From positions 32,001 through 96,000 of IMG/VR virus record IMGVR_UViG_3300050821_017570: a stretch of 64,000 nt of DNA. One strand, 5' to 3'. Each line of letters starts with the position of its first letter. The first letter of the stretch is position 1. Below the pieces are notes generated by a model. The model saw only the letters and a program-made list of their open reading frames with translations, ran no database searches and was not told the origin of the DNA. The DNA is from a virus. Shown in pieces: positions 25,505 through 46,776 of the stretch. The translations under genes were made by a program, and so were the position numbers.

Positions 25505-25816
25505 TTAGGATTCGTACAACAGATACATGAGATCGCGGTCATGCAGGTCTTCAGGATATCCACTATATCCGTAAAAGTATAAGTTACTCCATTCGCTCCA
25601 AGTGCTTGCCGCCACTCGGGCGCTATCGCTCTCAACCGTGCCATCACTAGCGTAGCTGACACAGGTGTAGGTGAGGTGATACTGCCAACGATGCGTGTGG
25701 CCACCGCGATCATGCCGCTGGCCAGCACTACGGTCGATTCCTCGGATCGTGTACCGATATAGATGGTTTCGAGTCATCCAGACCTGACCGATCCGTAAGG
25801 GTGCCAAATCTGTCAT
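25505..25816 (-). CDS. GQIW-family array protein
   Basis: LRIGQVWMTRN ... DLMYLLYES. Confidence 0.75.
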   Translation of the reverse strand: MTDLAPLRIGQVWMTRNHLYRYTIRGIDRSAGQRHDRGGHTHRWQYHLTYTCVSYASDGTVESDSARVAASTWSEWSNLYFYGYSGYPEDLHDRDLMYLLYES

Positions 25817-26103
25817 GGTGGAATCTTTCCATTTGGGTCACCAGCGGTTTCGAAACTTACTGGTGAGATCTCGCTAGCATACTCGCAGGTCTCGCCAGCC
25901 GCTCGGTTCAGCATACTGCTCGCCAATTGACCGTTTCCAAACGCGACCTTGATCGCTTCAAGCGTCTCGGCTGAAATCACATCGGTATGTGGGAACGTGC
26001 CGACACGTACCCACATCCCACGAGGTAGCATTGCGTATACGGCCTGCTGATCATCGAACCGAGAGACCACAAACTCTGGCACAAAATGTAACGTCTCATC
26101 CAT
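25813..26103 (-). CDS. Hypothetical protein inside array
   Basis: Start overlaps stop of array gene. Confidence 0.5.
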   Translation of the reverse strand: MDETLHFVPEFVVSRFDDQQAVYAMLPRGMWVRVGTFPHTDVISAETLEAIKVAFGNGQLASSMLNRAAGETCEYASEISPVSFETAGDPNGKIPP

Positions 26104-26452
26104 GGTATGCTTTCGGGTCCCACAAGAGGGTTATGAGGTCCACACCTTCGGGATGATTTGGTGTCTGATGAAACCACCAGGCGGTCGAACCCATGTATGC
26201 GGTATAGATGGTGTCGCGATCGCCTAACGAAATGTCAGGATAATCTGGATGAAGCCCACACCGATATCCGTGGGAGTAGATCCGAACATCATACTTACCC
26301 AGACCGGATCGCACTCTCGTTACGTGCACAATCTCAACACGGTGTGACTGATCGCGCAGCTGCCAAATCTGACCCGCCCGCAGCATGGGTGGATAGACCC
26401 CCCAGTGGAGCGGGAACAACCAGCCCGGCAGGTTACTGACGAACCGCCACAT
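26096..26452 (-). CDS. GQIW-family array protein (start may be MLRAGQ)
   Basis: LRAGQIWQLRDQ ... DLITLLWDP. Confidence 0.75.
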   Translation of the reverse strand: MWRFVSNLPGWLFPLHWGVYPPMLRAGQIWQLRDQSHRVEIVHVTRVRSGLGKYDVRIYSHGYRCGLHPDYPDISLGDRDTIYTAYMGSTAWWFHQTPNHPEGVDLITLLWDPKAYHG

Positions 26453-27105
26453 CAGGTGGCCCGACAGAAGCCAAGTGAATCCAAGGTCTCGTTCGGGTCA
26501 CGGAAGTATCCGATGATCTGCTTGGGCGTCACCCGGTTGGTCCCACTCATGGTGCCACCGTTCTGGATCATCTGGATCAGAATGCCGACCGTGTCGATCG
26601 TCAGGTTCGACTGGCCGGTTTGTTCACGCAGGTACTTGGCGAACTCAGGCCAACTGGCCAGCTGGGCGTGCCCCTGACGGCTCATGATGCCTTCGCACAC
26701 GTAGGCCAACCCAATCGAGCAGCTCGGGAAGTGGGTCAGCAGTTGAACTTCGGGAATCTGGTAGAGCACCGACTCAACGTCGGCGACCGGGTTACGGAGG
26801 TAGCTATCGCACCAGCTGATGGCTCTCAGGAGGCCCAGACTGCGGGTGCAACCGATGACCTGTTCGGCTCGTAGGCTAAACGTCTGATCGAGCCATTCGG
26901 TCATCCGCTTGTCACGATACTCGTACCCACAGAGCGTGGTGGCCTCAAGCCCATCACCCCATGGCATGGACAGCGTCTGGGCCAACACGAGGTTCCACTG
27001 GGTCAGCTCGGGCTGCCGGACGAACTCAGGTGCATTCTTCAGGACGACAAGACCTGCTTTGGTCGCGCGAGCCAATTGGCCGGCGCGTTTCGATTGTTTC
27101 GACAT
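26452..27105 (-). CDS. Hypothetical helical protein, possibly base-excision-glycosylase-like
   Basis: Long ORF with AAAG RBS; function guess is weak. Confidence 0.4.
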   Translation of the reverse strand: MSKQSKRAGQLARATKAGLVVLKNAPEFVRQPELTQWNLVLAQTLSMPWGDGLEATTLCGYEYRDKRMTEWLDQTFSLRAEQVIGCTRSLGLLRAISWCDSYLRNPVADVESVLYQIPEVQLLTHFPSCSIGLAYVCEGIMSRQGHAQLASWPEFAKYLREQTGQSNLTIDTVGILIQMIQNGGTMSGTNRVTPKQIIGYFRDPNETLDSLGFCRAT

Positions 27106-27120
27106 GATGTGCTTTCTAGT

Positions 27121-27765
27121 TCACGAACCTGAACTGGTATCAGCCGGGTTGGGACCAGGATCCTGATCCGACGTCGGACGGGCCGGCTTCGCCATATCGT
27201 CCGGCTTGGGCCAATTCAGCGGACAGGTTCGCTGGCTCGAAACCGAACTATCGTCATCAAAGTACTGAACCCGTACCTCACTGGGGAGGCGACCGGCCTC
27301 AATCGCCTTGGCCGCACCCTCAGGCCAATCAAGCCGACGGGTCACCTCATGAGCCGTAGGTTCCGACATCACGCTGGCCTGGATCTCCTTGGCCAGCCCT
27401 TCGCCGTGCCGCTTATGGGCCGCCGGATCACGCGCGTGAGCCAGCCAGGTGACCCCCATGGCGGCCAGCTCGGGATCCTGCTGGGCCGACTTACCAGTGA
27501 CGAAGTCATTGTGAGCTTCATCGAACCCAGCATACCCGTGCTGTCTCGCCACCTGATCGATCTTGTGGGCCTGATCTCGTTGGTAGCGAATGCTGGCCCT
27601 ATGGTTGCGCCAGTACTTGAGTGCGATCCGGAAGGCGTCCCAGGCCGCATGGACGACAGATGGGCGACCCGTCGCTACAGGCATTCGGGTGGCTGGGTCG
27701 TATCGGTAGTTCTGCTGACGCTGCGAATGGTAGGCTGACCGAAACGACTGAATCAGGTTGAACAT
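27121..27765 (-). CDS. Hypothetical protein
   Basis: AAAGGA RBS before MFNLIQ. Confidence 0.5.
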   Translation of the reverse strand: MFNLIQSFRSAYHSQRQQNYRYDPATRMPVATGRPSVVHAAWDAFRIALKYWRNHRASIRYQRDQAHKIDQVARQHGYAGFDEAHNDFVTGKSAQQDPELAAMGVTWLAHARDPAAHKRHGEGLAKEIQASVMSEPTAHEVTRRLDWPEGAAKAIEAGRLPSEVRVQYFDDDSSVSSQRTCPLNWPKPDDMAKPARPTSDQDPGPNPADTSSGS

Positions 27766-27773
27766 ATGGTCCT

Positions 27774-28262
27774 TTAATCCAAATGATGGAGGAGCCACCA
27801 GACCGCCACTAACTCGCGACGGCTCATCAGGTGGAGGGGTCGGGCAGTCGCGCGTAACGCGACGATACGGTCAAAGATGGGGCCACAATCGGCTCGCTCG
27901 TCGGCCGACACCATCTCACAGATCTGCTGATCCAGCAGATCGATCTGGTGGGTCAACCGCCTAGACTGACCAGTCTGGAACAGCTCAGTCAGGCGAATCG
28001 CATCGGCCGCCTCATTGGCCATCAGGTTGGGCCAATAGATCAGGTGGTAGCGAATCTGACTGGTGACATAACTCAGTATGCCGACCTGATAGTCAGCCGA
28101 CGTGTAGTCACCGTGTGGGTCCACCAGAGCGGGCAAATGGACCTCGTCAGCCCACCGGCCGGCTGTGACGGTATCACCATAGGGCCAGTACCGTTCCATC
28201 GCTACCTCATGCGTGGCGAGCTGTTGACAGAACTCTGGCGTCAGTACCGATGGAGCACCCAT
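27774..28262 (-). CDS. Hypothetical protein
   Basis: AAAGGA RBS. Confidence 0.5.
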   Translation of the reverse strand: MGAPSVLTPEFCQQLATHEVAMERYWPYGDTVTAGRWADEVHLPALVDPHGDYTSADYQVGILSYVTSQIRYHLIYWPNLMANEAADAIRLTELFQTGQSRRLTHQIDLLDQQICEMVSADERADCGPIFDRIVALRATARPLHLMSRRELVAVWWLLHHLD

Positions 28263-28272
28263 AGTGGGTCCT

Positions 28273-28560
28273 TTATAGGAGTTGGGTCTCTACATGCAAG
28301 GCAGGATCGTACAGACACTGCGTGAGATCCCAATCCGATCCACACCGAGAGTGCCAGTAGTTGGCCGTGGCGATCCACCGGTAAGGCATGAGTTCACTCA
28401 CATGATCAGACCAACAGCCAGACGGCAACATACGGCGGGTATGCGGATGAACCCCTTCGGCATCAATGGTAGTGTCAACGATACGGTATCGATGCTGCTG
28501 GCTCCGACACAGCCAGACCTGACCTGGCAGCAATCTGCTGGGGTTTAGGATGGGGTCCAT
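28273..28560 (-). CDS. GQIW-family array protein
   Basis: LLPGQVWLCRSQ ... DLTQCLYDP. Confidence 0.75.
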   Translation of the reverse strand: MDPILNPSRLLPGQVWLCRSQQHRYRIVDTTIDAEGVHPHTRRMLPSGCWSDHVSELMPYRWIATANYWHSRCGSDWDLTQCLYDPALHVETQLL

Positions 28561-28814
28561 AGGAGTTGCCAGGTGTTGTTATCTCCGTCTTGAAACGCGA
28601 CATCGGACAACACTTTCGACACACGAAACGCCCATCCTGGGGACTGAATCGCTCCTTCATAGTTCCCCCAGTAATTCCATCCGAACCAGCGGTCACCGTG
28701 CCGGATGATGGCAACCCGATTGACTGATTCCTGTCGCAACTCAAAATATTCCCGATACATCCGCATCCAGATCTGTCCATGTCTGAACCGAATCGATGAT
28801 TTGTGTGGTTCCAC
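28545..28814 (-). CDS. Divergent GQIW-family protein
   Basis: FRHGQIWMR ... WQLLWTP. Confidence 0.55.
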   Translation of the reverse strand: MEPHKSSIRFRHGQIWMRMYREYFELRQESVNRVAIIRHGDRWFGWNYWGNYEGAIQSPGWAFRVSKVLSDVAFQDGDNNTWQLLWTPS

Positions 28815-28815
28815 G

Positions 28816-29172
28816 TTAGGTCTCGGTCGACCCTGCCTCAGGGTCCCAGTAGAGGAGAATGTAGTTGGCCTGGTCAGACGGGGTGTAGAACTGGGTAGGT
28901 GTCATGACTTTGATATCAGGCAGATAGTCAGAGAGTGGTCTAACCTCCGCATCATCACTTTCCAAAAATCTGAACACTGCGCCGCCGTGTGGTTTCAGCT
29001 CATACCCACCGTAGTAGCAGCCATGGAGACTCAGCCGCCCGCTAGGACCTTTGGCTCGGAAAACTGCGAAGTATTCGGTCATACGCTCGTAACGGCGTTC
29101 CTCACTGCCACAACGGTCTAATAGTGTCCCATGTTGGCGCCAAATCTGAAAGTGTTTGAAATGGTGCTTCAT
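28816..29172 (-). CDS. Divergent GQIW-family protein
   Basis: FKHFQIWRQ ... YILLYWDP. Confidence 0.5.
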   Translation of the reverse strand: MKHHFKHFQIWRQHGTLLDRCGSEERRYERMTEYFAVFRAKGPSGRLSLHGCYYGGYELKPHGGAVFRFLESDDAEVRPLSDYLPDIKVMTPTQFYTPSDQANYILLYWDPEAGSTET

Positions 29173-29483
29173 ATGATGGCCTGTTCTGTGTCTTCATACG
29201 TGAGAATCCAAGCGGTGCCGTGTGGTTCTACCAGCACGGTGGGCTCGATAAGTTTGGGCTGGCTAAGACCGTGTTGGAGTTTCCACGGCTTGGAAACACG
29301 CTGTAGGTAGGTTATTACCGTGAGACCACCTCGTACGGCGCTACGCTTGAAGAACCAACCACCCAAACGATCCCTGGTATTGTGGTGCCGCATGACCGCC
29401 ATCAACCACGGATCCTCAGGATCATCTGTAGCCTGCCAGAGCTGGAAGTGCCTGAAACAATCGTAGGGGTTCGGAGCCGTCAT
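29169..29483 (-). CDS. Divergent GQIW-family protein
   Basis: FRHFQLWQA ... WILTYED. Confidence 0.45.
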   Translation of the reverse strand: MTAPNPYDCFRHFQLWQATDDPEDPWLMAVMRHHNTRDRLGGWFFKRSAVRGGLTVITYLQRVSKPWKLQHGLSQPKLIEPTVLVEPHGTAWILTYEDTEQAII

Positions 29484-29770
29484 GTTGGACTCCAGACGAG
29501 ATGGATGAGCGGGTAGTTGTCTAGCCCAGTGTGTCCTTTATCGCGGCTCCAAACTCCTCCGTAGCGATAGAACGTATTGGTGGTTGTCCTATGGTCACAA
29601 CTATACTTGGTTTCACAATCAATCGAATCGTCTCGTTTATACCGCTTGATAATCTCAACGATCTGGCAGGTCACCTCTTGATCGTCTGTCATCCAGATCT
29701 GACCGGCCTGTAGGTCACACGGTAAGCACGAGTCCTGGGTTGAACCCATTGGTTTCTCCTCGATAGCCAC
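29480..29770 (-). CDS. GQIW-family array protein (start uncertain)
   Basis: LQAGQIWMTDDQ ... PLIHLVWSPT. Confidence 0.7.
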   Translation of the reverse strand: MAIEEKPMGSTQDSCLPCDLQAGQIWMTDDQEVTCQIVEIIKRYKRDDSIDCETKYSCDHRTTTNTFYRYGGVWSRDKGHTGLDNYPLIHLVWSPT

Positions 29771-30614
29771 GCGGGTTGGCTACCAAACGGGTCTGGTCGA
29801 TATGAAAGTCAAACTCAGTATGGGTGTGACCGAAGCACCAGAGGTCTGGCTGGGTTCGGTAGATCAGATCATCCAGTGGGGCACAGAAATAGGGGTTCAG
29901 CCAATGGCCACGGAACTTTGGCGCAATCGCCTCCTCTGAGGGAATCCAATGGGTCAGCACGATCCGCTTGGGAGTAGGGATCTGCATGGCGCGATCGGCC
30001 CGTCGGAGCCAACCCGTTAGCCTCATCACGGCATCCTGGTGGGCCTCAATATGTCGGGCTGGAGTCCATTCAAACCTATCCCGCATGATGAGGTTCGGGC
30101 TAAAGTCGCTCACCCCTACCGAGGTGAGCCAGCAGTTGAGCCCAACCTCGGTGAGGCCGCCAGGTGGCGTCACCTGAATGGGAACCAACGGGTTCAGTGG
30201 GTTGACCAGTCTGAGGCCGTCACGCTCGATCCGCTGTCTCAGATCGGGGTCCAGCGATATGGTGAGGCCGCTCCACAAGGGGGTTCCGTAGATCTCATAG
30301 GGTTGGCCCCCAACCATCAGGGTGGTGGCCTCGTTGTGAAGCAACGTCACATGCGGACATTCCTGAAGTGCGGCCTTGAAATACGGTGACAGGAGATCTT
30401 TATGCCGGAGATCCTGAGAGTCGGTGTGGTAGAAGTCATGGTTACCGAGCACCAAATAGACAGGCCGTTCAATCTGGTTGAGAAAATCGATCACCAGTTT
30501 GGGTTTAGACCAGTGGCCCAAATCCCCACATACGCAGGTGATGTCGGCCTCCACCTCCGGCAACCCAAGGTAGCGGCCCTCAAGATGGAGATCACTAATG
30601 AGGTGAAGCCGCAT
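29715..30614 (-). CDS. Calcineurin-like metallophosphoesterase
   Basis: SDLH, GD, GNHD, TH, GHTH motifs. Confidence 0.9.
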   Translation of the reverse strand: MRLHLISDLHLEGRYLGLPEVEADITCVCGDLGHWSKPKLVIDFLNQIERPVYLVLGNHDFYHTDSQDLRHKDLLSPYFKAALQECPHVTLLHNEATTLMVGGQPYEIYGTPLWSGLTISLDPDLRQRIERDGLRLVNPLNPLVPIQVTPPGGLTEVGLNCWLTSVGVSDFSPNLIMRDRFEWTPARHIEAHQDAVMRLTGWLRRADRAMQIPTPKRIVLTHWIPSEEAIAPKFRGHWLNPYFCAPLDDLIYRTQPDLWCFGHTHTEFDFHIDQTRLVANPRGYRGETNGFNPGLVLTV

Positions 30615-30869
30615 TTAGCCTTCTGGGTTGTAGATAAGGGTTATGAGATCAAGCCGTTGAGGATCGGTGGTCCCAAGATCATCGAAACGATAATAGGAGC
30701 CATCAGGCGATGGAACCCACCTATACGTTAGATTAGCTAGTCGCATACCATCGGTATGAAACCATCGACACTGTATCCGACCATCTGGCCATGGGTTTGT
30801 ATCTACTTTCAGACGCCAATCCTGATCCCTAGAGAGCCAAATCTGCCCGGCCTTAAGCGGAGCTAGCAC
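30615..30869 (-). CDS. GQIW-family array protein
   Basis: LKAGQIWLSRDQ ... DLITLIYNP; GTG start in junction. Confidence 0.8.
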   Translation of the reverse strand: MLAPLKAGQIWLSRDQDWRLKVDTNPWPDGRIQCRWFHTDGMRLANLTYRWVPSPDGSYYRFDDLGTTDPQRLDLITLIYNPEG

Positions 30870-31120
30870 GGTGGCTCCCACAGCAGAGTGATGAGATCGT
30901 CCTGTGATGGATTACTCGGCAGGAACGCCCAATAGGCATTATTATAGGATGGTCGCCAATGAAGTTTTGTGGCACCGAAACCAGCAGACCCGGTCGAACG
31001 ATCCCGAAACGTGACTTCAAGCCAACCCTCAGTCGACGTAACGGGCTCACCAGTTACCTGGATACGACGATCCTGTCTCCGGCAGAGCCACACCTGGCCC
31101 TGTCGTAGTGGTACTAACAT
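30863..31120 (-). CDS. GQIW-family array protein
   Basis: LRQGQVWLCRRQ ... DLITLLWEPPC. Confidence 0.8.
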   Translation of the reverse strand: MLVPLRQGQVWLCRRQDRRIQVTGEPVTSTEGWLEVTFRDRSTGSAGFGATKLHWRPSYNNAYWAFLPSNPSQDDLITLLWEPPC

Positions 31121-31130
31121 GCAGGCCCCT

Positions 31131-31871
31131 TTAGCGTGGGGTTGTGTGCCTCAAACTGCCAGACAGACGGAAGCTGCGACGCTCCCGTCGTGACCCCACG
31201 GGGGCCGCATGAGCCATCCGGAATCTGCGGACCTCAGCATCGCTCACACCCTCTAGGGACGCGAACTCAAAATTCGTCGCTTGGTTCCACCGCATGGTAT
31301 GCAGGTCGAAATACCCAATGTAACCACCCTTGGCCAACTCAAACGCTCGGTGAACGTTCTGCCGGAAGCTACACGGGCCGACAAACCCAGGTTCGAACCA
31401 CTGAGGGGTCACGAAGTCACTCACGAGGGTGTTGTTGATCTTATACCCTAACGAGTCGTCTTCGACCGCATCAGCTACCTCGTAAGCCATGATGCGTGCG
31501 GTATGTGGGTCCAACACCGAGAGATTAACGTAGGGGTCTAAAATTTGCTCAAGAAGTTCGTGACTCACCGTAACTGACAACGCGTCGCCCGCCTGCTGGT
31601 CCGCCCGGGCAAACACCTTGCCGATCGGCTTGCCTGAGCTACTAAGGTCGTGGTATCCAAGCGCTCCAGCCTGATCCGCATCGTCCAGAATCAGCAGCTG
31701 CCAACACGCCGGGTCGATCGGATCGGTTCGACCGCAGAACTCCAGATGTGCATCAAGATCCCAGATTGGTGCAAAGTCCCTACTGATCTGGGTTTGAAGA
31801 TCTGGCACCATTGCCGCCACCACCGCATCTGATGTAATGGTCGAATGGTTAATCAGGCTGATACAGATCAT
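31131..31871 (-). CDS. Zincin-like metallopeptidase
   Basis: ALGYHD..VSHELLEQILDP..YEVADAVE pattern. Confidence 0.6.
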   Translation of the reverse strand: MICISLINHSTITSDAVVAAMVPDLQTQISRDFAPIWDLDAHLEFCGRTDPIDPACWQLLILDDADQAGALGYHDLSSSGKPIGKVFARADQQAGDALSVTVSHELLEQILDPYVNLSVLDPHTARIMAYEVADAVEDDSLGYKINNTLVSDFVTPQWFEPGFVGPCSFRQNVHRAFELAKGGYIGYFDLHTMRWNQATNFEFASLEGVSDAEVRRFRMAHAAPVGSRRERRSFRLSGSLRHTTPR

Positions 31872-31886
31872 GTGGGACCTCGCCGG

Positions 31887-32171
31887 CTAACCTACTTGGT
31901 CGATTGGGTCCCACAAGAGGGTGATGAGGTCAGTTATGCGTACAATGTCCGGCAGCTCGTCTGAAGAGCACTCGTGCCAATAGTCGCCGGTGCGGCCGAC
32001 TTGGTATCGGAAAACCATTGGCAACCAACGCCGTCCAGGTTGCTTCCACGAGTAGGGTTGCATCAGAGTATCAAACGCATCGTCATGCGGCGTAATCTTT
32101 ATGATCTGAAACGTAACATGCTGGCCGCGCACCAACCAGATCTGCCCATCCCTAAGCGGCGTGAGGGTCAT
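31887..32171 (-). CDS. GQIW-family array protein
   Basis: LRDGQIWLVRGQ ... DLITLLWDP. Confidence 0.8.
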   Translation of the reverse strand: MTLTPLRDGQIWLVRGQHVTFQIIKITPHDDAFDTLMQPYSWKQPGRRWLPMVFRYQVGRTGDYWHECSSDELPDIVRITDLITLLWDPIDQVG

Positions 32172-32415
32172 ACAGACAGACAGACAGACAGACGATCATT
32201 GTGAGATTAGCAACCCCTGGGATGACCAACGTACCGTCCTGCTCATGAACAGAGCCCCAGGTCAGCTGCCTGCCACGCTGCACGCGGCTCAGTAGGTCGG
32301 TCGTGGTCACGTAGTAATGGGTACTACGGTCTTCCTGTACCTGTATGGCGTCGATTCGTAACCACGTAAATTGTTCGAGCGTCTGCCAGATTTGTCCGAT
32401 TCGGATTGGCGTCAC
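32152..32415 (-). CDS. GQIW-family array protein
   Basis: IRIGQIWQTLEQ ... VCLYDP. Confidence 0.75.
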   Translation of the reverse strand: MTPIRIGQIWQTLEQFTWLRIDAIQVQEDRSTHYYVTTTDLLSRVQRGRQLTWGSVHEQDGTLVIPGVANLTMIVCLSVCLYDPHAA

Positions 32416-32651
32416 GTGGGCTCCCACAGCAGGTTGGTGAGTACGAAGTTGTCACAATGGTAGTACTCACCCTTCGGCACAAACGTACGTTCAAACGTGG
32501 CTTCATCTAACCGAGCGTTGTAGTCGTCACTGTATGTGAAGCTGAGCCAGATGTTGTGCCGGACGTGCTGGCCAATCAGGACACGGGAATCGTGACCCGA
32601 CAGGCCAAGCCGGTGGATCAGCCAGCGCTGACCCGTCTGCAGTCGTATCAT
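32412..32651 (-). CDS. GQIW-family array protein
   Basis: LQTGQRW ... LTNLLWEPT. Confidence 0.75.
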   Translation of the reverse strand: MIRLQTGQRWLIHRLGLSGHDSRVLIGQHVRHNIWLSFTYSDDYNARLDEATFERTFVPKGEYYHCDNFVLTNLLWEPT

Positions 32652-32920
32652 GGTGGGCTCCATAGTAGGTAGGTTGGGTCGCCAGGGACGGGGTTGAAAT
32701 CATCATGGTGGTACCAACCATAGTGGGCTGGATCACTGTGAAAGCGAATCAGCAGCAACGTTGTGCCTGGCGTACCGTCCTCACGGGGCAACCACGATGA
32801 CTCGGCTTCACACCACCAGTGGGTTCCATCATACGATTGGAACCCAACCGTTCGTATGAGTCGGCGGCCACACTGATTCCGGCTCAGCCAGATCTGACCT
32901 ACTCGTAATGGTTCGGTCAT
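32648..32920 (-). CDS. GQIW-family array protein
   Basis: LRVGQIWLSRNQ ... DPTYLLWSPP. Confidence 0.8.
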   Translation of the reverse strand: MTEPLRVGQIWLSRNQCGRRLIRTVGFQSYDGTHWWCEAESSWLPREDGTPGTTLLLIRFHSDPAHYGWYHHDDFNPVPGDPTYLLWSPP

Positions 32921-33204
32921 GTGGGCTCCCACAACAACTGCATGAGGTCCCACGGCTGGACATCGGATTCAGCCCAACGGTGACAGCTAGGGTCGAGGTC
33001 ACTCACGTACCACCAGTTCTGTTGTCCACAGAACCCACGATCCGTCCCACCAGGCGAGCAACGCATCGCCTGGACCGCATACTGGGCACGCTTCCTACCA
33101 TCCATACCTGACGGACGGATGACTCTGAAGACCTGAACCCGTAGGTTGGGGTTTCGACACAGCCAGACCTGGCCCTCACGGATCGACACCAGCTCACCTG
33201 TCAT
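32917..33204 (-). CDS. GQIW-family array protein
   Basis: IREGQVWLCRN ... DLMQLLWEPT. Confidence 0.8.
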   Translation of the reverse strand: MTGELVSIREGQVWLCRNPNLRVQVFRVIRPSGMDGRKRAQYAVQAMRCSPGGTDRGFCGQQNWWYVSDLDPSCHRWAESDVQPWDLMQLLWEPT

Positions 33205-33520
33205 CGCCAGACCCACGGAGCGTGCCGCGTGCGATGCGGCCCTCGATTTTCTGTTGTGAAAGTTCCAAGATGGTAGACATGCTGACTCCATAGTGGGTCG
33301 CTAGACTAGAGATGATGATCATCAGGTCGCCCAGCTCCAACAGCAAGTGGGGCAGGTCGATTGGTGTCCCATCCCTCAGGTGCTTCTTAATCAGTTCGAT
33401 CGCCTCTCCGGCCTCGCCTCCGAGGTTCAGACCCAGGAGCGCCAGATGGGGAAGCCCTTCGGCCTGTGGGTGTGGCTTCGCCGCCATCCAGGCTTGGTAC
33501 GTATCGATGTTAGGGTCCAT
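33194..33520 (-). CDS. mazG: MazG-like nucleotide pyrophosphohydrolase
   Basis: LGGEAGEAIELIKKHLRD..ELGDL..KIEGR..RGTLRGSGDDR; start refined to MDPNID. Confidence 0.9.
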   Translation of the reverse strand: MDPNIDTYQAWMAAKPHPQAEGLPHLALLGLNLGGEAGEAIELIKKHLRDGTPIDLPHLLLELGDLMIIISSLATHYGVSMSTILELSQQKIEGRIARGTLRGSGDDR

Positions 33521-33821
33521 GGATGTCCGGATCGTAAATGAGATGAACCAACTGCAGGGGTCGGGTATGCCGTCGGTAGTCAACCAGCCACTGTGGGGTA
33601 AAGAACTGATGGTTGCCGGATAGCCGGAATCCCAGCCCGCTCACCACACAATGCCGGTCACCCAGCGCGCCGCCTTCATAGACCGGCTCGTAATCGTGAC
33701 ACCATCCGTCACACAGGTAGGTTTGATGGTCCGGTACGTAGGTGACCCGCACCAGCTGATAAACAACCTGCTGGTTTCGACACTGCCAGACCTGACGGTC
33801 TTTGAGTTGCTTCGGTATCAT
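33510..33821 (-). CDS. GQIW-family array protein
   Basis: LKDRQVWQCRNQ ... LVHLIYDP. Confidence 0.75.
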   Translation of the reverse strand: MIPKQLKDRQVWQCRNQQVVYQLVRVTYVPDHQTYLCDGWCHDYEPVYEGGALGDRHCVVSGLGFRLSGNHQFFTPQWLVDYRRHTRPLQLVHLIYDPDIHGP

Positions 33822-34090
33822 GGTGGCCCCCACAGCAGGATCATCAGGTCGTCCGGTGCAAAACGTTCGGTCTGGTGATAATGCCAGGTCTGATCAGTTG
33901 GATCGAACCGAAAGGCGTGGTGGTGTATGCTACCCCACCCACCCTGCTTACCATTCCAGAAGTTAGCCTGCTGATAACTCACCTCTGCTGTCATGTCCTC
34001 TACGGCGATCACGGGGTCGGTGACGATGAAACAGCGATAGTGCTGGTACCGTAGCTGCCAGATCTGACCCACCCGGAGCGGGACTAGCAT
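33818..34090 (-). CDS. GQIW-family array protein
   Basis: LRVGQIWQLRYQ ... DLMILLWGPP. Confidence 0.8.
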   Translation of the reverse strand: MLVPLRVGQIWQLRYQHYRCFIVTDPVIAVEDMTAEVSYQQANFWNGKQGGWGSIHHHAFRFDPTDQTWHYHQTERFAPDDLMILLWGPP

Positions 34091-34347
34091 GGCGGTTCCC
34101 ACAGCAGGATCACCAGGTCTAATGACCGATCCATAGGGCTATAACGGTTCCCTGCTGCCTGCAGCTCACCTTGATAGTAGTCGCCCCGGTCGCTCCATCG
34201 GATCCAACTGGTTCCATAGGTTTGGACCGGATTATGGTCGACCTGCTCGACAAAATAGCCTCCTGACGGCTCAGCAATCTGCTGAAAGTGGTAGCGATAT
34301 CGCTGATTCCGACACATCCAGATTTGTCCTGCTCTCAAAGCTAGCAT
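34084..34347 (-). CDS. GQIW-family array protein
   Basis: LRAGQIWMCRNQ ... DLVILLWEPPC. Confidence 0.8.
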   Translation of the reverse strand: MLALRAGQIWMCRNQRYRYHFQQIAEPSGGYFVEQVDHNPVQTYGTSWIRWSDRGDYYQGELQAAGNRYSPMDRSLDLVILLWEPPC

Positions 34348-34649
34348 GGTGGCTCCCACAGAAGGGTTATGAGGTCATGTTTCAGATCAGGCAGCCCTAT
34401 GAGGCCAAACCAACGGTAGTAGGTCTGGCAATCGGAGACACAGAACGTTACGCCGCTGGTTTCATGACTCAGCGTCCGCTCGTCTAGGATGACGCGAAAA
34501 TGACCGCCCCACACCTGTTCTGACATCTGGTGCTGACGTCGATGATCGGCACCATACTGAGCAGGCCCGTACTGGAGCCGTAGGATTTGATATCGTGCCG
34601 ATTGGTCTCGACACAACCAAATCTGATCTGGTTTCAATGGGGCTAGCAT
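34341..34649 (-). CDS. GQIW-family array protein
   Basis: LKPDQIWLCRDQ ... DLITLLWEPPC. Confidence 0.8.
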   Translation of the reverse strand: MLAPLKPDQIWLCRDQSARYQILRLQYGPAQYGADHRRQHQMSEQVWGGHFRVILDERTLSHETSGVTFCVSDCQTYYRWFGLIGLPDLKHDLITLLWEPPC

Positions 34650-34897
34650 GGTGGATCCCAGAGACAGACGATAAGGATTCGGTCAGGATGGAGGGTTGAC
34701 AGCTGGTAGTACCCATCAGGATGTGGGACAAACTCTCGCCACGTCTCTATCTGCTCAGGACGGGGTGGTCGCTCCCGTAGTGGCGCGTACAGATAGCTGC
34801 ACCAGATGGTATGCCGTACATGCTTACCGATATGGATCCGTATGCCCTCGCGGTCACTCATCAGCCAGATCTGACCCTGTCTAAGCGGTGGGGTCAT
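34643..34897 (-). CDS. GQIW-family array protein
   Basis: LRQGQIWLM ... LIVCLWDPPC. Confidence 0.8.
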   Translation of the reverse strand: MTPPLRQGQIWLMSDREGIRIHIGKHVRHTIWCSYLYAPLRERPPRPEQIETWREFVPHPDGYYQLSTLHPDRILIVCLWDPPC

Positions 34898-35129
34898 ACA
34901 TCAGCCCCATGAGGTCAAACCCACGATAGGATTGGCCCTTCTGCTCCCAAATCCCTTCGTTCCACCGGACGTTCCAAATGAGATTGCCGGTATAGCCGCC
35001 ACTAAACTGGAGATAGGAAAACCTGATGTTGTAGCCGCTACCATCGGGTCGCACCTCCTCAAGCGTCAAACGATACTGCTGGTTACGGGTCAGCCAGACT
35101 TGGCCGACCTTCAGTTGGATTCGATCCAT
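34881..35129 (-). CDS. GQIW-family array protein
   Basis: LKVGQVWLTRNQ ... DLMGLMYDPT. Confidence 0.8.
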   Translation of the reverse strand: MDRIQLKVGQVWLTRNQQYRLTLEEVRPDGSGYNIRFSYLQFSGGYTGNLIWNVRWNEGIWEQKGQSYRGFDLMGLMYDPTA

Positions 35130-35132
35130 AGG

Positions 35133-35420
35133 TTAGCCTTTGGGTTCCCACAAGAGAGTTATGAGATCACAGTTACGATAGTCATGAAGCTCGTTTTGAG
35201 CCGCCGTCAGCGCGGCATTATGGTAGCGATAACAGAGTGGCTGACGGATCCAGCAGACTTGGTTAAACGGGCCGAACCTCTCATCAGGCGTGGTCCACCA
35301 GCCGTACCCATCAACCAGGTATCGATCTGGCTGTGGGGCAGCCACCACCCTATGGAGTCGCACGCGCCACCAACCCGATCGGGCCATCCAGATCTGACCC
35401 GGTCTAACCTGGGGGATCAT
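35133..35420 (-). CDS. GQIW-family array protein
   Basis: VRPGQIWMARS ... DLITLLWEP. Confidence 0.8.
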   Translation of the reverse strand: MIPQVRPGQIWMARSGWWRVRLHRVVAAPQPDRYLVDGYGWWTTPDERFGPFNQVCWIRQPLCYRYHNAALTAAQNELHDYRNCDLITLLWEPKG

Positions 35421-35700
35421 ACCGTAGCCAGACGAGGTCGTCGATATCGGCCCGAAACGCACCATCGGCATTGCAGTAGCAGATCGACTCGCCTCGTGGG
35501 CACCAATAGACACGATCAACCGTACGGTCAACCGTCTGGGTGGCAAAATCCTCACTCAGCCGGATGATTTCGCGCTGCACCCGAACCATCTCTCCGTCTG
35601 ACGTATCGGATTCTACCCACACGCCCAGTACCCGCAGGGTAGCGAGACTCCTCGGGTTCCGAAACTGCCAGATCTGCCCGACCCTAAGTGGATGGCTCAT
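35404..35700 (-). CDS. GQIW-family array protein
   Basis: LRVGQIWQFRN ... DLVWLRYDPP. Confidence 0.8.
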   Translation of the reverse strand: MSHPLRVGQIWQFRNPRSLATLRVLGVWVESDTSDGEMVRVQREIIRLSEDFATQTVDRTVDRVYWCPRGESICYCNADGAFRADIDDLVWLRYDPPG

Positions 35701-35932
35701 ACAGGCACGTGACGAGGTCATAGTTTTCTGACATCCGATTGGTTCGGGCCCAACAGTCGGGCTGATCACAGTAGCTGAACTGTTCGCGCGGCCACTGATG
35801 ACCGTCATACATGTCATACGTCGTTACCGTCAGCGTAACGGTCCGATTCGAGTGAGTCGTAATCTCACGGATCAGGAACCGCCGGTTCTGGCCGCGGTTC
35901 ATCCAGATCTGGCCAATCTTAAGTGGGGTCAT
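35684..35932 (-). CDS. GQIW-family array protein
   Basis: LKIGQIWMNRGQ ... DLVTCLYEP. Confidence 0.8.
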   Translation of the reverse strand: MTPLKIGQIWMNRGQNRRFLIREITTHSNRTVTLTVTTYDMYDGHQWPREQFSYCDQPDCWARTNRMSENYDLVTCLYEPST

Positions 35933-36191
35933 AGATCAGACTCGTGAGATCGTATTCATCGTTTTGTGACCCCACCCGATCGTAGTGGTAGACCGGCGAA
36001 CCTGATCGTTGGTACAGCGTTATATCAAGATCCATGTCCTCCATTCCCTCACCGAGATCGAGGTGGTCCCAGCGACCCTGAATCCGGTAACGAACACATC
36101 GGGTGAACCGCCGGACCGTGACGCGTTCGATGTGGTAGCGGGCCTGCTGATCCCTACTCAGCCAGACCTGACCCACCCTAAGCGGGCGCAT
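35919..36191 (-). CDS. GQIW-family array protein
   Basis: LRVGQVWLSRDQ ... DLTSLIYDPT. Confidence 0.8.
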   Translation of the reverse strand: MRPLRVGQVWLSRDQQARYHIERVTVRRFTRCVRYRIQGRWDHLDLGEGMEDMDLDITLYQRSGSPVYHYDRVGSQNDEYDLTSLIYDPT

Positions 36192-36429
36192 ATAGCATCT
36201 GCACGAGGTCTAACGGTGGTGCGTGCAGCCCACGTCCAAGCGCATTGATCCACAATTGCCAGCATCGGGTTGGTTCATCCCACCGGTGGCATCGTTCGGT
36301 TGCGTCGTCATGCAGTATGAGACCGTTATCGTCAACCCACTCGTAGTACCCCTGATCAGGGCCGGTGACGCAGAAGGTATAGCGTTGGCCCCGACACTGC
36401 CAGATTTGTCCAGCTCTTAAAGCTAGCAT
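36178..36429 (-). CDS. GQIW-family array protein
   Basis: LRAGQIWQCRGQ ... DLVQMLYAP. Confidence 0.8.
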   Translation of the reverse strand: MLALRAGQIWQCRGQRYTFCVTGPDQGYYEWVDDNGLILHDDATERCHRWDEPTRCWQLWINALGRGLHAPPLDLVQMLYAPA

Positions 36430-36722
36430 GGTGGCTCCCACAGCAGGCTGATGAGTCGATACGCCATTGTCAGTTCACATTTTAATGGTCCAATGGGAAA
36501 TCCGTCGCGCGCACCCGGAACGGTGGTCCACCAACCACCCTCATACCAGCAGAACGGCCGTCGAAATTCGGTCTTAATGTGTCGGCTGGTCTCTAGGCTG
36601 CTACCCACGTAACTGTACCAGATCGAGTCGGTGTCATGGGCGCCAATGAAAATCCGATTACGATGGTTCTGGTCCATCGCTCCACTGAGCTGCCACTGCT
36701 GACCCATCCGCAGGGCAATCAT
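36423..36722 (-). CDS. GQIW-family array protein
   Basis: LRMGQQWQL ... RLISLLWEPPC. Confidence 0.8.
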   Translation of the reverse strand: MIALRMGQQWQLSGAMDQNHRNRIFIGAHDTDSIWYSYVGSSLETSRHIKTEFRRPFCWYEGGWWTTVPGARDGFPIGPLKCELTMAYRLISLLWEPPC

Positions 36723-36952
36723 GGTGGATCCCACAGTAGCGTGATGAGCCGATGAGCCTGATCGATTCGCCAGAAGCCGTTTGACTCATAGATACGTCGC
36801 ATGGTCCAGTCCTCAAAAGGAATTCGGTTACGATCCATTCCATACCAGGTCCTCCATACCTGCTCTTTCACATGACAACCGACAAACAGCCGGTTTGGAT
36901 GAAGGTCCAGTACATCGACCAGCCAGATCTGACCTTCTCGTATGGCAATCAT
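36719..36952 (-). CDS. GQIW-family array protein
   Basis: IREGQIWLV ... RLITLLWDPP. Confidence 0.8.
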   Translation of the reverse strand: MIAIREGQIWLVDVLDLHPNRLFVGCHVKEQVWRTWYGMDRNRIPFEDWTMRRIYESNGFWRIDQAHRLITLLWDPP

Positions 36953-37188
36953 GGTGGGTCCCACAGCAGGTTGATAAGTCGATGACTCAGGTCGAATGCC
37001 CACACGGGGCCAGCCCTACGGATCGTGCGGGTCGTCCAGATTCGGGTATTTGGGTCTGGGTCGATCCCATACCAGGTTCGCCAGTCCTCACCCGTCACGT
37101 GTGCGCCAATAAACAGCCTATTCGGATGGTTGGCCCGAATGGTGGAATCCACCTGCCAGATCTGGCCCGACCGGATAGGACTCAACAC
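36949..37188 (-). CDS. GQIW-family array protein
   Basis: IRSGQIWQV ... RLINLLWDPP. Confidence 0.8.
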   Translation of the reverse strand: MLSPIRSGQIWQVDSTIRANHPNRLFIGAHVTGEDWRTWYGIDPDPNTRIWTTRTIRRAGPVWAFDLSHRLINLLWDPP

Positions 37189-37445
37189 GATCGCTCCCAC
37201 AGTAGGATCATCAGATCGTTAGGGCCAGGCCCGGTGCTGTAGTGGTGGCAACCAAGCTGATCGTCTGGCCACCAATAGATGGTACTCCATCCGTTTGACC
37301 CACTGGATCGGTTCAGATGGGCGTGAAATTGGTGCCAAATACGTGTGCCATCGTCGTGATCACCAATGTAGCGGCCAATGGTGGCTCGATACGCCTGAGC
37401 CCGGCACAGCCAGATCTGACCCTCTCTAAGCGGCGGGAGGATCAT
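37182..37445 (-). CDS. GQIW-family array protein
   Basis: LREGQIWLCRAQ ... DLMILLWER. Confidence 0.8.
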   Translation of the reverse strand: MILPPLREGQIWLCRAQAYRATIGRYIGDHDDGTRIWHQFHAHLNRSSGSNGWSTIYWWPDDQLGCHHYSTGPGPNDLMILLWERSC

Positions 37446-37704
37446 ACAGGCAAACCGTGAGATCGAACTCGTTGGGGTGACCGGAGCGGTTGCGGCACCA
37501 GGCCTGCCCGACTCCGCTGTATTCCCAATCCGTGCTACCGGCGTCACCGTTATCGTGGATCCGATGGACGGTAAAGCTGACCCTCAGTTGGGGCGGACTA
37601 CCACGCTGATCGGCGATGCTCTTGATGTGAAATCGGTACTGTTGGTAACGGGTCATCCAGATCTGACCGGGCCGAAGCTGTACTGGCGTATCAGTGGGTT
37701 CCAT
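37426..37704 (-). CDS. GQIW-family array protein
   Basis: LRPGQIWMTRYQ ... DLTVCLYDPP. Confidence 0.8.
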   Translation of the reverse strand: MEPTDTPVQLRPGQIWMTRYQQYRFHIKSIADQRGSPPQLRVSFTVHRIHDNGDAGSTDWEYSGVGQAWCRNRSGHPNEFDLTVCLYDPPAA

Positions 37705-38257
37705 AGGTGGTTTCCAAACTAGAAAGGAAGGGGCGAAACATCTCAATACTTGCCAAACAGTCATCAAGGCTCCGGTGGGCCGGATTACCCTTCGGGCGCG
37801 GCACACCCGTCACCATCTCCTTGCCGATCTCAAAGCTACTAACGTCGAGTAGACGGTAGCTGAGTTCTGACAAGCAGTTAGGTGTGTGCCAGCGGAGCCA
37901 CCGAACGTCGAAATGTACGCTGCTGCCGGCCAGGTAGGTTTGCTGGCGATCCACACGATGCGAGCGAATCCACTCGATCAGATCGGTATCACTGAAGTAG
38001 TGGCAGTCACAGATACCCTGCTCGTACCGCTGGACGATCTCACCGATCAGACCCGATTGGGTATGCAGGCGGACGCACTGGTGGTCCATCCCCTCGACGC
38101 ATTCATCATACGGCATGCCGGCCAGCCAGTGGAAGCGGCCCAGCTCAGTGAGATGTCGATCCGTAACGATACATCCGACCTCACGGATCTGGCCATCTTC
38201 GGGCTCAAGTCCCGTGGTCTCCAGATCCAGCCATACCAAACGTAACGGGTCAGTCAT
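37691..38257 (-). CDS. orn: Oligoribonuclease-like DEDDh exonuclease
   Basis: LVWLDLETTGL..LAGSSVHFD..YRLLDVSS..HRSLDD. Confidence 0.85.
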   Translation of the reverse strand: MTDPLRLVWLDLETTGLEPEDGQIREVGCIVTDRHLTELGRFHWLAGMPYDECVEGMDHQCVRLHTQSGLIGEIVQRYEQGICDCHYFSDTDLIEWIRSHRVDRQQTYLAGSSVHFDVRWLRWHTPNCLSELSYRLLDVSSFEIGKEMVTGVPRPKGNPAHRSLDDCLASIEMFRPFLSSLETTYGTH

Positions 38258-38266
38258 AAGTTCTTT

Positions 38267-38548
38267 CTAGTCAGGCTGATAGATCAGCCAGACGAGGTCA
38301 TGCGGGTCAGGTCTCAGATCGCGCCACCAGCTATGGATGGCAGGTATGCCAACATACCAACAGTAATGGTCCGAACGGTGTGCGGGGTCAAACCCAGTGT
38401 GGGTGAACCATACAGTCGAGCCATCGGATTCGAACGGAGGCCGCGGTAGGGCTACGACCTGTGTGATCCGAATCCTCCAGGCCTGTTCCCGACACAGCCA
38501 GACTTGGTTTGCCTTGAGTGGTTCTAACATCTTAACCTGCAGGCTCAT
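38267..38548 (-). CDS. GQIW-family array protein
   Basis: LKANQVWLCREQ ... DLVWLIYQP. Confidence 0.75.
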   Translation of the reverse strand: MSLQVKMLEPLKANQVWLCREQAWRIRITQVVALPRPPFESDGSTVWFTHTGFDPAHRSDHYCWYVGIPAIHSWWRDLRPDPHDLVWLIYQPD

Positions 38549-38801
38549 ATAGCAGAATCATGAGATCCAAATCGGTCGGGTCGTCGTCTCGTTGGCTCAT
38601 ATGACAGGCACGAGTTGGGTTAAACCAATAGGTACAGCGATCGTTTCGGCTGAACCTCCCATCCTGTTCAACCCGATAGCGTATGGGCTGTCGATGCTGG
38701 CCTTCATCACTCACATGTGGGTCACCCAGCTCGGTAATGATAATGCGTTCGGTCTGATCTCTTCGGAGCCAAATTTGTCCGACCCTCAGTTGTTCCAGCA
38801 T
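38532..38801 (-). CDS. GQIW-family array protein (first gene of array)
   Basis: AAGGA RBS; LRVGQIWLRRDQ ... DLMILLYEP. Confidence 0.8.
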   Translation of the reverse strand: MLEQLRVGQIWLRRDQTERIIITELGDPHVSDEGQHRQPIRYRVEQDGRFSRNDRCTYWFNPTRACHMSQRDDDPTDLDLMILLYEPAG

Positions 38802-38810
38802 AGTGTCCTT

Positions 38811-38843
38811 AAACAGATAAACCCAGGCAGAGCCTGGGTTTAT
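38811..38843 (-). terminator. Perfect 12-bp hairpin, probable terminator at head of array
   Basis: ATAAACCCAGGC-TCT-GCCTGGGTTTAT followed by CTGTTT on minus strand. Confidence 0.6.
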
Positions 38844-38865
38844 GACAACCAACCATCATATGGGT

Positions 38866-45258: not shown

Positions 45259-45632
45259 GGTTTGCTCTGTCGGGGATCATGCCGTGCGTGAGGGCGTCGG
45301 GCCCGCTCCTTGAGCCGACGATCGAGTTCTGAGGAGTCAAAGCTTCCCTCAGGCAGATCGCCAAGCGCCATAAGCCGCTTGCGCAACAGCACCAGAACAT
45401 CCTGGGTTGAGAAGCCACGGAATGGGCTATCACAACCAGGAGCGTCCACCACATCCATAATCATGCTGTTGACCAGCTGAATCGCCTGCTCTTTGGCCAG
45501 ATGTTCCATCTCGGTCAGCTTGGGGCGCGCCGCCTCCATAATGACCCGAACGGCTATCGAACGCTCCTCCGGTGTCGGCTTATCCATGGCTCGCTGAAGC
45601 TCGTGTGTGAGGTCGTTGAAGAAATCATGCAT
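45255..45632 (-). CDS. Hypothetical protein
   Basis: Start refined to MHDFF. Confidence 0.5.
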   Translation of the reverse strand: MHDFFNDLTHELQRAMDKPTPEERSIAVRVIMEAARPKLTEMEHLAKEQAIQLVNSMIMDVVDAPGCDSPFRGFSTQDVLVLLRKRLMALGDLPEGSFDSSELDRRLKERARRPHARHDPRQSKP

Positions 45633-46116
45633 TGTCGTCATCCTCAGGTTCATCGTAGTCTTCATCCTCATCTTCATCTTCGTCTTGATCCTCATCACCA
45701 TCCGGATGGGGTGTGGCCGGTATGCCGCGGAACCACTCTTCATTACCCAGCTCGGGTTCCCAAATCAGCCGCACGAGTGAGAATGCTATCTCGTAGGTAC
45801 CACGAGCCTCCTCAGATCCGGTTGGGAAAAGGTAATAGGGTACCGATATCCGGGTATTGGGTGGCAGACAGCCAGTTAGCCAGTGGTACTCATCACCCTG
45901 ATAACCTATCCTGAAACCGCCGATATGACTGGTGGCCATTTCGGTTCCGTCGGGAGCCGAACTAAGCAACCAACCGAATACTCGGTCTTCATAGTCATCG
46001 CGATCCGGACTAATTATGACAGCCGTATACCGCTGGTCGAAGCATTGCCAGATCTGACCTTTCGATAGCAGTGGTAACGCTTCGTTTACCGGCTTTACAG
46101 CCCGTGTTCTCGTCAT
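45625..46116 (-). CDS. Dispersed GQIW-family protein with acidic tail
   Basis: LSKGQIWQCFDQRY ... SLVRLIWEP + poly-D/E. Confidence 0.7.
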   Translation of the reverse strand: MTRTRAVKPVNEALPLLSKGQIWQCFDQRYTAVIISPDRDDYEDRVFGWLLSSAPDGTEMATSHIGGFRIGYQGDEYHWLTGCLPPNTRISVPYYLFPTGSEEARGTYEIAFSLVRLIWEPELGNEEWFRGIPATPHPDGDEDQDEDEDEDEDYDEPEDDDNA

Positions 46117-46167
46117 AGGTTGCCCTTATTCCTATTGTATTGGTTTTTTGATTCATATCATATCGCA

Positions 46168-46776
46168 ATGCATACTAAAATTTGCACCAAGTGTAAGACG
46201 CCTCTGCCGCTAAGTATGTTTCATAAGCATACTAACGCAAAAGACGGGCACCGTGCGAGATGTAAAGCCTGCATATCGGTGGCGAGCGAAATTTACTATC
46301 AGAAAAATGAAGCACGTATAAAAGAACGTGTAAACGCGTCTCGCGTTGAACATCCTGACCGTAAACAGGCTACAAATCGAGCATACAGGAAAAATAACCG
46401 TGCTAAGAAAAATGAGTGGGCTAAAAAGTGGTTAGCTGAAAAATATCATTCAGATATCGAATTCAAGCTGACTAGTGGGCTGAGGTGCCGCTTATATCAA
46501 GCTCTTAAAAATAGTCACAAAGCCGCTGCAACATTAGAACTCTTAGGGTGTACTATCAGTGAATTAAAAATACACCTAGAATCGAAATTTTTACCTGGCA
46601 TGACTTGGGAAAACCACACACGTGATGGCTGGCATGTAGATCACATCATCCCGTGTGCTGCATTCGACCTCACCAAAGAGGAAGAGCAGCGTAAGTGTTT
46701 CCACTACACAAACTTGCAGCCATTGTGGTGGTTTGACAATATTAAAAAAGCCGCAACGATACCATATTCACACTAA
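46168..46776 (+). CDS. HNH homing endonuclease
   Basis: CTKC..KDGHRARCKAC; LLGC..L..HLE.KF..GMTWEN..WHVDHI.P..CFHYTNLQPLW; AT-rich; only credible + strand gene. Confidence 0.85.
   Translation: MHTKICTKCKTPLPLSMFHKHTNAKDGHRARCKACISVASEIYYQKNEARIKERVNASRVEHPDRKQATNRAYRKNNRAKKNEWAKKWLAEKYHSDIEFKLTSGLRCRLYQALKNSHKAAATLELLGCTISELKIHLESKFLPGMTWENHTRDGWHVDHIIPCAAFDLTKEEEQRKCFHYTNLQPLWWFDNIKKAATIPYSH

Follow-up and report, generated by a model that had tools for sequence, protein, structure and literature searches.

Within a 64,000-nucleotide stretch of viral DNA (the window, corresponding to bases 32001-96000 of the 187,139-bp IMG/VR virus contig IMGVR_UViG_3300050821_017570, which is estimated to be 95% complete), positions 25505-38852 are occupied largely by an array of small minus-strand genes. 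Their products begin with the motif L-(R/K)-x-G-Q-(I/V)-W and end with D-L-x-x-L-L-(W/Y)-(D/E)-P. A family hidden Markov model (HMM), built from 30 members (alignment A1), scores 30 genes of 77-103 amino acids (aa) in this range at E-values of 5e-9 to 1e-23. The open reading frames (ORFs) of the array are genuine coding genes and form a single, uncatalogued multigene family, carried by an uncultured soil phage of about 187 kb; a reading of them as spurious ORFs was rejected on the profile E-values and the confident predicted folds.

A preliminary description of the locus had listed 29 clear and three divergent ORFs between these positions. Both the ORFs and their end motifs are present as described, and the run of 16 consecutive genes on one strand that it placed at 33510-37704 has exactly those boundaries. 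The count requires adjustment, since 30 genes have HMM support and two of the three divergent ORFs have none: in a four-sequence profile test these two scored E 0.04-0.15, and their resemblance to the family is confined to an F-(K/R)-H-F-Q-(I/L)-W start. The tally for the range is 30 family genes and two doubtful ones. The array does lie where it was said to lie, but the family extends beyond it, with two outlying copies in the window and six further copies at record positions of about 115.3-116.0 kb, 119.1-120.0 kb and 180.8-181.1 kb. An HMM search of the whole record finds 38 copies, which occupy roughly 10 kb or about 5% of the genome. Minus-strand frames contain the pattern G[QH][IVL]W 27 times within the array and two more times in the outlying family genes; elsewhere in the window there are only two matches, both unrelated, and the plus strand has none.

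The supposition that the family was undescribed is supported, as its members have no match in Pfam, PHROGs, NCBIfam or PADLOC, nor among PDB sequences. For ten window members and ten external homologues Pfam yielded nothing at E-values up to 1, bar scattered unrelated matches at E 0.01-0.16. KOW and Tudor sequence profiles matched none of the members tested, and the PDB sequence search returned nothing below E 0.08. The HMM search that had been proposed as a check was run exhaustively against 1.84 billion representative proteins and gave 97 matches: 30 from the phage itself, one spurious repeat protein (P0086) and 66 others.

Predicted fold and conserved framework

The fold was assessed with AlphaFold2 models of two members from different subgroups. 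That of an 85-aa member, computed with alignment A1, is a six-strand all-beta structure with a predicted local distance difference test score (pLDDT) of 90 and a predicted template modelling score of 0.79. For the second model, of a protein from the most divergent subgroup, an 87-sequence alignment was used; its pLDDT is 88 and its strand order the same. Both models, being six-stranded and all-beta, are of the SH3-like small-barrel type, and across the family loop lengths and exposed positions are highly variable around this common barrel. The models bear out the single scaffold with variable loops that the preliminary description had envisaged. A homodimer prediction for the 85-aa member scored 0.09 against a mark of 0.42 and counts neither way.

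Exhaustive structural comparison gave, for both models, top neighbours that include the KOW domain of Spt5, the Tudor domain of PcrA/UvrD, TraI C-terminal domains and EF-P domain I, with Spindlin/Tudor/BAH, Sm/LSm, ribosomal SH3-like proteins and MazF as the others. The structural Z-scores are weak, at 4-5.3. The best, 5.3, is with Spt5 KOW (root mean square deviation 2.5 over 60 residues) and the PcrA Tudor domain (2.1 over 53 residues), and Spindlin reaches 5.0. Foldseek searches of PDB and BFVD gave no match with an E-value under 0.06, and on solved members of the SH3-like barrels none under 0.3; a shape search of the ESM Atlas gave template modelling scores of about 0.5-0.6 to unnamed clusters only. 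On these models each gene is predicted to encode a six-stranded small beta-barrel of about 80-100 aa of the SH3/KOW/Tudor type. The fold class named in the preliminary description is, as far as the models go, the right one, with no specific family implied. A reading of the genes as toxins of the MazF/PemK/CcdB kind is not supported, since the fold resemblance is weak (Z 4.0-4.5), there is no Pfam or PADLOC match, and the neighbouring genes are more copies of the family.

Conservation was computed over 112 domains from this phage and others, with residues numbered as in the 85-aa member. Q9 and W11 are invariant, G8, G47, L76, L79 and P83 are at least 86% conserved, and R14, Q16, W55, Y/F59, Y/W64, D75, L80, Y/W81 and D/E82 are strongly conserved. 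In the remaining columns entropy exceeds 3 bits nearly throughout, and loop lengths vary. The fold is held by the first strand, G-Q-I/V-W, the last strand, D-L-x-x-L-L-W/Y-D/E-P, one glycine and three aromatic positions. The middles of the proteins had been said to share little, and they are indeed hypervariable, with the exception of G47, W55, Y/F59 and Y/W64, which are 87-96% conserved.

At the conserved residues the codons are scrambled (six for Leu, five for Arg, four for Gly and both for Asp), with 2 to 8 different codons at each of the L, R, G and D positions, so that conservation acts on the protein and not on a DNA repeat. For the same reason DNA-level homogenisation of the gene ends was rejected; repeats at the DNA level are confined to the junctions, where they are 60-88% identical. 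The richness in Trp, Tyr, His and Arg reported earlier is borne out by comparison with the phage's other long ORFs: W is enriched 3.1-fold, R 1.8-fold, Y 1.7-fold and H 1.7-fold, while K (0.4-fold) and A are depleted. The net charge of members spans -8 to +4, which suggests that their surfaces are diverse rather than uniform.

Domains of the KOW, Tudor (PcrA/UvrD C-terminus), Sm and cold-shock types bind nucleic acid or RNA polymerase, and the barrels might do likewise, the paralogs then tuning transcription, RNA stability or translation of different targets during infection. Their best structural neighbours would fit this reading, including as they do Spt5 KOW, the RNA polymerase-binding Tudor domain of PcrA/UvrD, EF-P domain I, Sm/LSm and the ribosomal SH3-like proteins. 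The enrichment in aromatic residues, Arg and His and the location of the genes among those of nucleotide metabolism and replication would fit as well. However, the members are mostly neutral or acidic and poor in Lys, the Z-scores are no higher than for a generic fold, and a single conserved machine would hardly account for 38 divergent copies. We consider this explanation unlikely.

Organisation of the array

Array neighbours mostly overlap, by 4-20 nt. In the 16-gene chain 14 of the 15 junctions do so, the remaining one being a 3-nt gap. Two types of junction are seen. Where the upstream gene ends in the Trp form of the motif, the codons of W-(E/D)-P-P read TGGGANCCACC and are followed by ATG, such that a GGGA Shine-Dalgarno-like element lies 5 nt before an ATG that overlaps the upstream stop. 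Where it ends in L-Y-D-P there is no Shine-Dalgarno element, and the next ATG is contained in TAT-GAC, 14-20 nt ahead of the stop codon. The C-terminal motif is thus partly dual-coding, because its codons supply either the Shine-Dalgarno-like element or the ATG of the next gene. Promoter- and terminator-like sites do not exceed shuffled expectation, there is no convincing internal promoter or terminator in the array, and the large genes around it are all on its strand. From this arrangement we infer that the array is read as a single long early or middle transcript, or as a few of them, and that its translation is coupled.

Table 1. Family genes and doubtful relatives in the window, with the family arrays of a related phage contig.
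Feature	Position	Strand	Evidence and remarks
Family gene, 103 aa	25505..25816	-	HMM E 3.4e-18; motifs present
Family gene, 96 aa	26096..26386	-	HMM E 8.5e-19
Family gene, 95 aa	28273..28560	-	HMM E 1.5e-15
Divergent family gene, 89 aa, GTG start	28545..28814	-	HMM E 5.2e-9; end-to-end alignment
Doubtful relative, 118 aa, F-K-H-F-Q-I-W start, LLYWDPE end	28816..29172	-	E 0.14-0.15 (two profiles), not significant
Doubtful relative, 104 aa, F-R-H-F-Q-L-W start only	29169..29483	-	E 0.04-0.05, not significant
Family gene, 89 aa	29480..29749	-	HMM E 4.7e-17
Family gene, 84-88 aa (start uncertain)	30615..30881	-	HMM E 4e-21; groups with external P0040, support 97
Family gene, 85 aa, structure model 1	30863..31120	-	HMM E 1.4e-23; AlphaFold2 pLDDT 90, six strands
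Family gene, 94 aa	31887..32171	-	HMM E 1.1e-17
Family gene, 91 aa, 3' end is (CTGT)n repeat	32152..32427	-	HMM E 5.1e-15
Family gene, 79 aa	32412..32651	-	HMM E 6.1e-13
Family gene, 90 aa	32648..32920	-	HMM E 3.7e-19
Family gene, 95 aa	32917..33204	-	HMM E 2.4e-18
Family gene, 103 aa, last of 16-gene chain	33510..33821	-	HMM E 1.6e-17
Family gene, 90 aa	33818..34090	-	HMM E 2.3e-21; identical copy in other soil sample (L086)
Family gene, 87 aa	34084..34347	-	HMM E 1.5e-20
Family gene, 102 aa	34341..34649	-	HMM E 1.2e-20
Family gene, 84 aa	34643..34897	-	HMM E 7.2e-17
Family gene, 82 aa	34881..35129	-	HMM E 2.7e-20
Family gene, 95 aa	35133..35420	-	HMM E 1.5e-14
Family gene, 98 aa	35404..35700	-	HMM E 9.6e-17
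Family gene, 82 aa	35684..35932	-	HMM E 1.3e-23
Family gene, 90 aa	35919..36191	-	HMM E 2.1e-20
Family gene, 83 aa	36178..36429	-	HMM E 3.1e-16
Family gene, 99 aa, N-R-I/L-F-I-G subgroup	36423..36722	-	HMM E 1.7e-15
Family gene, 77 aa, N-R-I/L-F-I-G subgroup	36719..36952	-	HMM E 6.1e-12; 57% identity to next gene, synonymous divergence (dS) 1.4
Family gene, 79-83 aa, structure model 2	36949..37200	-	HMM E 1.8e-12; AlphaFold2 pLDDT 88, all-beta
Family gene, 87 aa	37182..37445	-	HMM E 1.2e-21
Family gene, 92 aa, first of 16-gene chain	37426..37704	-	HMM E 1e-23
Family gene, 87 aa	38267..38530	-	HMM E 1.6e-20
Family gene, 89 aa	38532..38801	-	HMM E 1.2e-19
Outlying family gene, 163 aa, barrel plus poly-Asp/Glu C-terminal tail	45625..46116	-	HMM E 6.2e-7; wider profile 8e-14
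Outlying family gene, 151 aa, barrel plus C-terminal extension of about 45 aa	52296..52751	-	HMM E 2.4e-11
Family arrays of L003	L003:3609-5038 and L003:9720-10950		Related phage contig

The setting of the array is one of early and nucleotide-metabolism genes on the same strand. Interspersed among the family genes are those for a metallophosphoesterase (29715-30614), a MazG-like pyrophosphohydrolase (33194-33583) and an RNase T-type exonuclease (37691-38257), and nearby are an RNA ligase, a class II ribonucleotide reductase (RNR) and a RuvB-like ATPase. The 151-aa outlying gene sits directly downstream of the RNR gene. In the other outlying product about 25 residues following the barrel are nearly all Asp or Glu, a tail reminiscent of acidic DNA mimics or of single-stranded DNA-binding proteins. 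Adjacent to it, at 46120-46776, is one of only three plus-strand ORFs of at least 180 aa in the window. It has Cys-x-x-Cys pairs and an H-V-D-H-I-I-P motif and appears HNH endonuclease-like by eye, so that its product is possibly a free-standing homing endonuclease.

One further feature concerns a junction. About five CTGT units at 32152-32200 form the end of a family gene, whose product terminates in V-C-L-S-V-C-L-Y, and the run extends as far as the next gene's ATG. Slippage there could shift the frame at this junction; positions 32163-32201 were skipped as a repeat in the read comparison reported below.

Divergence and turnover

The preliminary description likened the growth of the array to an accordion, and this part of it, taken as recent amplification, is not supported. 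Among the 38 copies pairwise identity has a median of 26% and a maximum of 57%, and genome-order neighbours are no more alike than any other pair. Even in the closest pair dS is about 1.4, and the six closest pairs all have values of at least 1.0. With the synonymous sites saturated in this way, recent gene-accordion amplification was rejected. The ratio of non-synonymous to synonymous divergence is 0.24-0.56 in the closest pairs with finite dS. The family is old and deeply diverged, and is under purifying selection on the fold. A diversity-generating retroelement was also sought and rejected, there being no RVT_1 match in the 187-kb genome and no DNA repeats other than the weak junction similarity.

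The 66 external relatives are all metagenomic, measure about 80-110 aa and have the same ends, with five two-domain fusions and one five-repeat protein among them. The latter (P0068, L005:4070-5416, on a phage-like contig) has 448 aa and repeats a shortened barrel, G-Q-x-W ... D-L-x-x-L, five times in tandem; one of the fused forms (P0033, on L003, from an NCBI metagenome assembly) has two barrels in 210 aa. Where contigs are readable the relatives lie in tandem arrays, and these overlap where checked; L001, for example, has four family genes in 2 kb. A degenerate pattern, G-Q-I/V-W-Q-C-R-D/N-Q, found nothing in IMG/VR and two metagenome loci of the Joint Genome Institute (JGI), neither belonging to the family, and a looser one hit at least 120 loci in contigs of cellular genomes, with no real family member among the matches listed.

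Comparison of array content across relatives, another of the checks proposed beforehand, shows that copy number differs at syntenic sites in two distant relatives. In the soil contig L002, syntenic with record positions 111-125 kb, about five copies lie between the terminase and SbcD-like genes, as against three here. L003 is syntenic with the RuvB-RNR region; five copies separate its RuvB-like gene from its PolB-exo gene, a site at which the present phage lacks the family, and its RNR gene is followed by three or four copies instead of the single one here. At such sites copies from the same phage are in several cases each other's closest relatives (tree support 83-98), which indicates local duplication after the phages diverged; 67 of the 109 inner branches of the family tree are open, and few sister pairs are usable. 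Old tandem duplication, deep divergence and gain and loss of copies together amount to long-term birth-and-death evolution. In four IMG/VR phages whose class II RNR is 48-54% identical, no family member was found. The phage itself recurs without any difference from the window in contigs from two soil metagenome runs, and likewise in a second JGI sample; among RNA data sets none was listed as containing it.

Such turnover would also fit an array that is largely dispensable filler, in which duplicated small ORFs of a hyperplastic region fold harmlessly and gene ends are kept for the start signal that they carry for the next gene. Very different copy numbers among relatives, the RNR-based relatives that lack the family and the dual-coding C-terminal motif are what filler would lead one to expect. 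Yet all 30 frames in the range are intact, the fold-defining residues are retained despite saturated synonymous change, devoting about 5% of a packaged genome to the family is costly, and the N-terminal motif, although beyond the overlap, is the best-conserved part of the protein. The explanation is disfavoured by these intact frames and by constraint at the level of the fold, and we regard it as improbable.

Comparison with known systems and possible roles

Bacterial polymorphic toxin systems offer one parallel in their homogeneous polyimmunity loci and polyimmunity proteins (Zhang et al. 2012, PMC3482391), which similarly consist of tandem, closely spaced, same-strand genes for distant paralogs of one small domain, probably on one message; there, too, copy number and content vary among relatives and multi-domain fusions exist. 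The present array differs in belonging to a lytic-type phage genome rather than a bacterium, and in its barrel fold, which is unrelated to the SUKH, SuFu and Imm families (Imm models gave no match). A second parallel is with the hyperplastic regions of T4-type phages and their PeSL cassettes (Arbiol et al. 2010, PMC2839356; Comeau et al. 2014, PMC4122927), which are likewise blocks of small, variable accessory ORFs between conserved replication and nucleotide-metabolism modules and likewise differ among related phages. The ORFs of those regions are, however, unrelated ORFans, whereas here a single paralogous family is present. The array also lacks intergenic promoter/stem-loop cassettes, because most of its neighbouring genes overlap, and its junction repeats are just 60-88% identical. 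With gene accordions such as poxvirus K3L (cited in PMC13359090) and the amplified T4 tifA (Srikant et al., bioRxiv 10.1101/2022.04.14.488369) the array shares tandem multiplication of a small viral gene of the kind seen in arms races with host defence. Accordion copies are near-identical and transient, unlike the copies here, with their identity of about 26% and saturated synonymous sites.

Two sequence families call for comparison. DUF6354 (PF19881), uncharacterised actinobacterial proteins of about 110 aa, is the named cluster that language-model features place nearest to two of the members (0.86 and 0.88, values that serve as leads only). Both families begin x-G-Q-hydrophobic-aromatic and continue with an R-x-x-V/I strand, but DUF6354 has a helical C-terminal part and no known arrays. 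Its Pfam model matched nothing in the genome at E-values up to 10, and hhalign gave a probability of 28% over 31 N-terminal columns only. The other family comprises marine mini-genes beginning M-K-V-G-D-L-V, of which up to ten lie within about 8 kb (IMG/VR loci L141, L115, L122 and others), their 50-75-aa products commonly having the end L-E-V-I/L-S-E-S/G-R. As in the soil array, small-barrel genes with fixed N-terminal and C-terminal strands are chained; the soil family is longer (80-100 aa) and Trp-rich. Comparing the 112 family domains with 163 marine members, hhalign found no detectable similarity (probability 2%), and the two are therefore separate sequence families with the same architecture. 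Marine arrays of this kind were not found in the literature searched.

We tentatively favour, as possible rather than probable, the view that the array constitutes a permanent repertoire of proteins that specifically bind or neutralise variable host proteins. Each paralog would be aimed at a different variable host factor, for example a defence or toxin protein, and might act as an inhibitor, a decoy or an antitoxin-like neutraliser. The set would be produced from one polycistronic message by coupled translation of the overlapping genes, and the array would be the viral counterpart of the bacterial homogeneous polyimmunity loci. This reading is preferred because the common scaffold, the diversity of surface and charge, the richness in aromatics and Arg, the chaining, the turnover and the fusions match the published description of those loci (PMC3482391), and because the same set of features also fits the T4-type hyperplastic regions (PMC2839356, PMC4122927).

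Several observations weigh against it. The fold matches, all at Z of 5.3 or below, say nothing on function, and no family member was matched by anti-defence, immunity or defence models. Any positive selection is hypothetical, synonymous sites being saturated and both soil runs identical to the window. Certain polar residues are kept from copy to copy (Q9 in 100%, R14 in 79%, Q16 in 79%, D75 in 71% and D/E82 in 75%), and these could point to a shared ligand or partner instead of purely individual targets.

The same (near-)invariant polar residues, together with P83, would be expected in every copy if a constant face docked on one partner, or on other copies, the proteins being interchangeable adaptors or subunits of mixed assemblies. 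Coupled translation of overlapping genes is typical of the subunits of complexes, the two- and five-domain fusions in other phages resemble Rosetta-stone links, and the genome encodes a ThiF-type E1 (Pfam PF00899, E 1e-21, at G000:C1:109669-110220, outside the window). Against this, the polar residues may merely cap or clamp the barrel, and a search over all protein lengths found no relative in which a known enzyme or adaptor domain is fused to the barrel; the chance that adaptors or assemblies are the answer seems to us rather small. A two-faced variant, for which we would give very little, would have the constant face (Q9, W11, R14, Q16, D75, D/E82 and P83) on one phage machine while the hypervariable face picks host proteins. 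One candidate machine is ubiquitin-like conjugation, the ThiF-type E1 lying about 40 kb downstream of the array. Were this true, the array would be a phage counterpart of the F-box, BTB and ankyrin substrate-receptor expansions of large eukaryotic viruses.

Taken together, the soil and marine arrays suggest that chains of overlapping genes for small barrels have arisen repeatedly in large phages, an architecture poorly covered in the literature searched. Since the soil family is absent from Pfam, PHROGs, NCBIfam and PADLOC, its members go unannotated in metagenomes. If they are individual binders, as in the repertoire that we tentatively favour, a single virus would carry about 38 natural specificities, all displayed on one scaffold of 9-11 kDa. 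Such a library would provide direct handles for finding host defence and toxin proteins in soil bacteria, as well as a compact scaffold for binder engineering.

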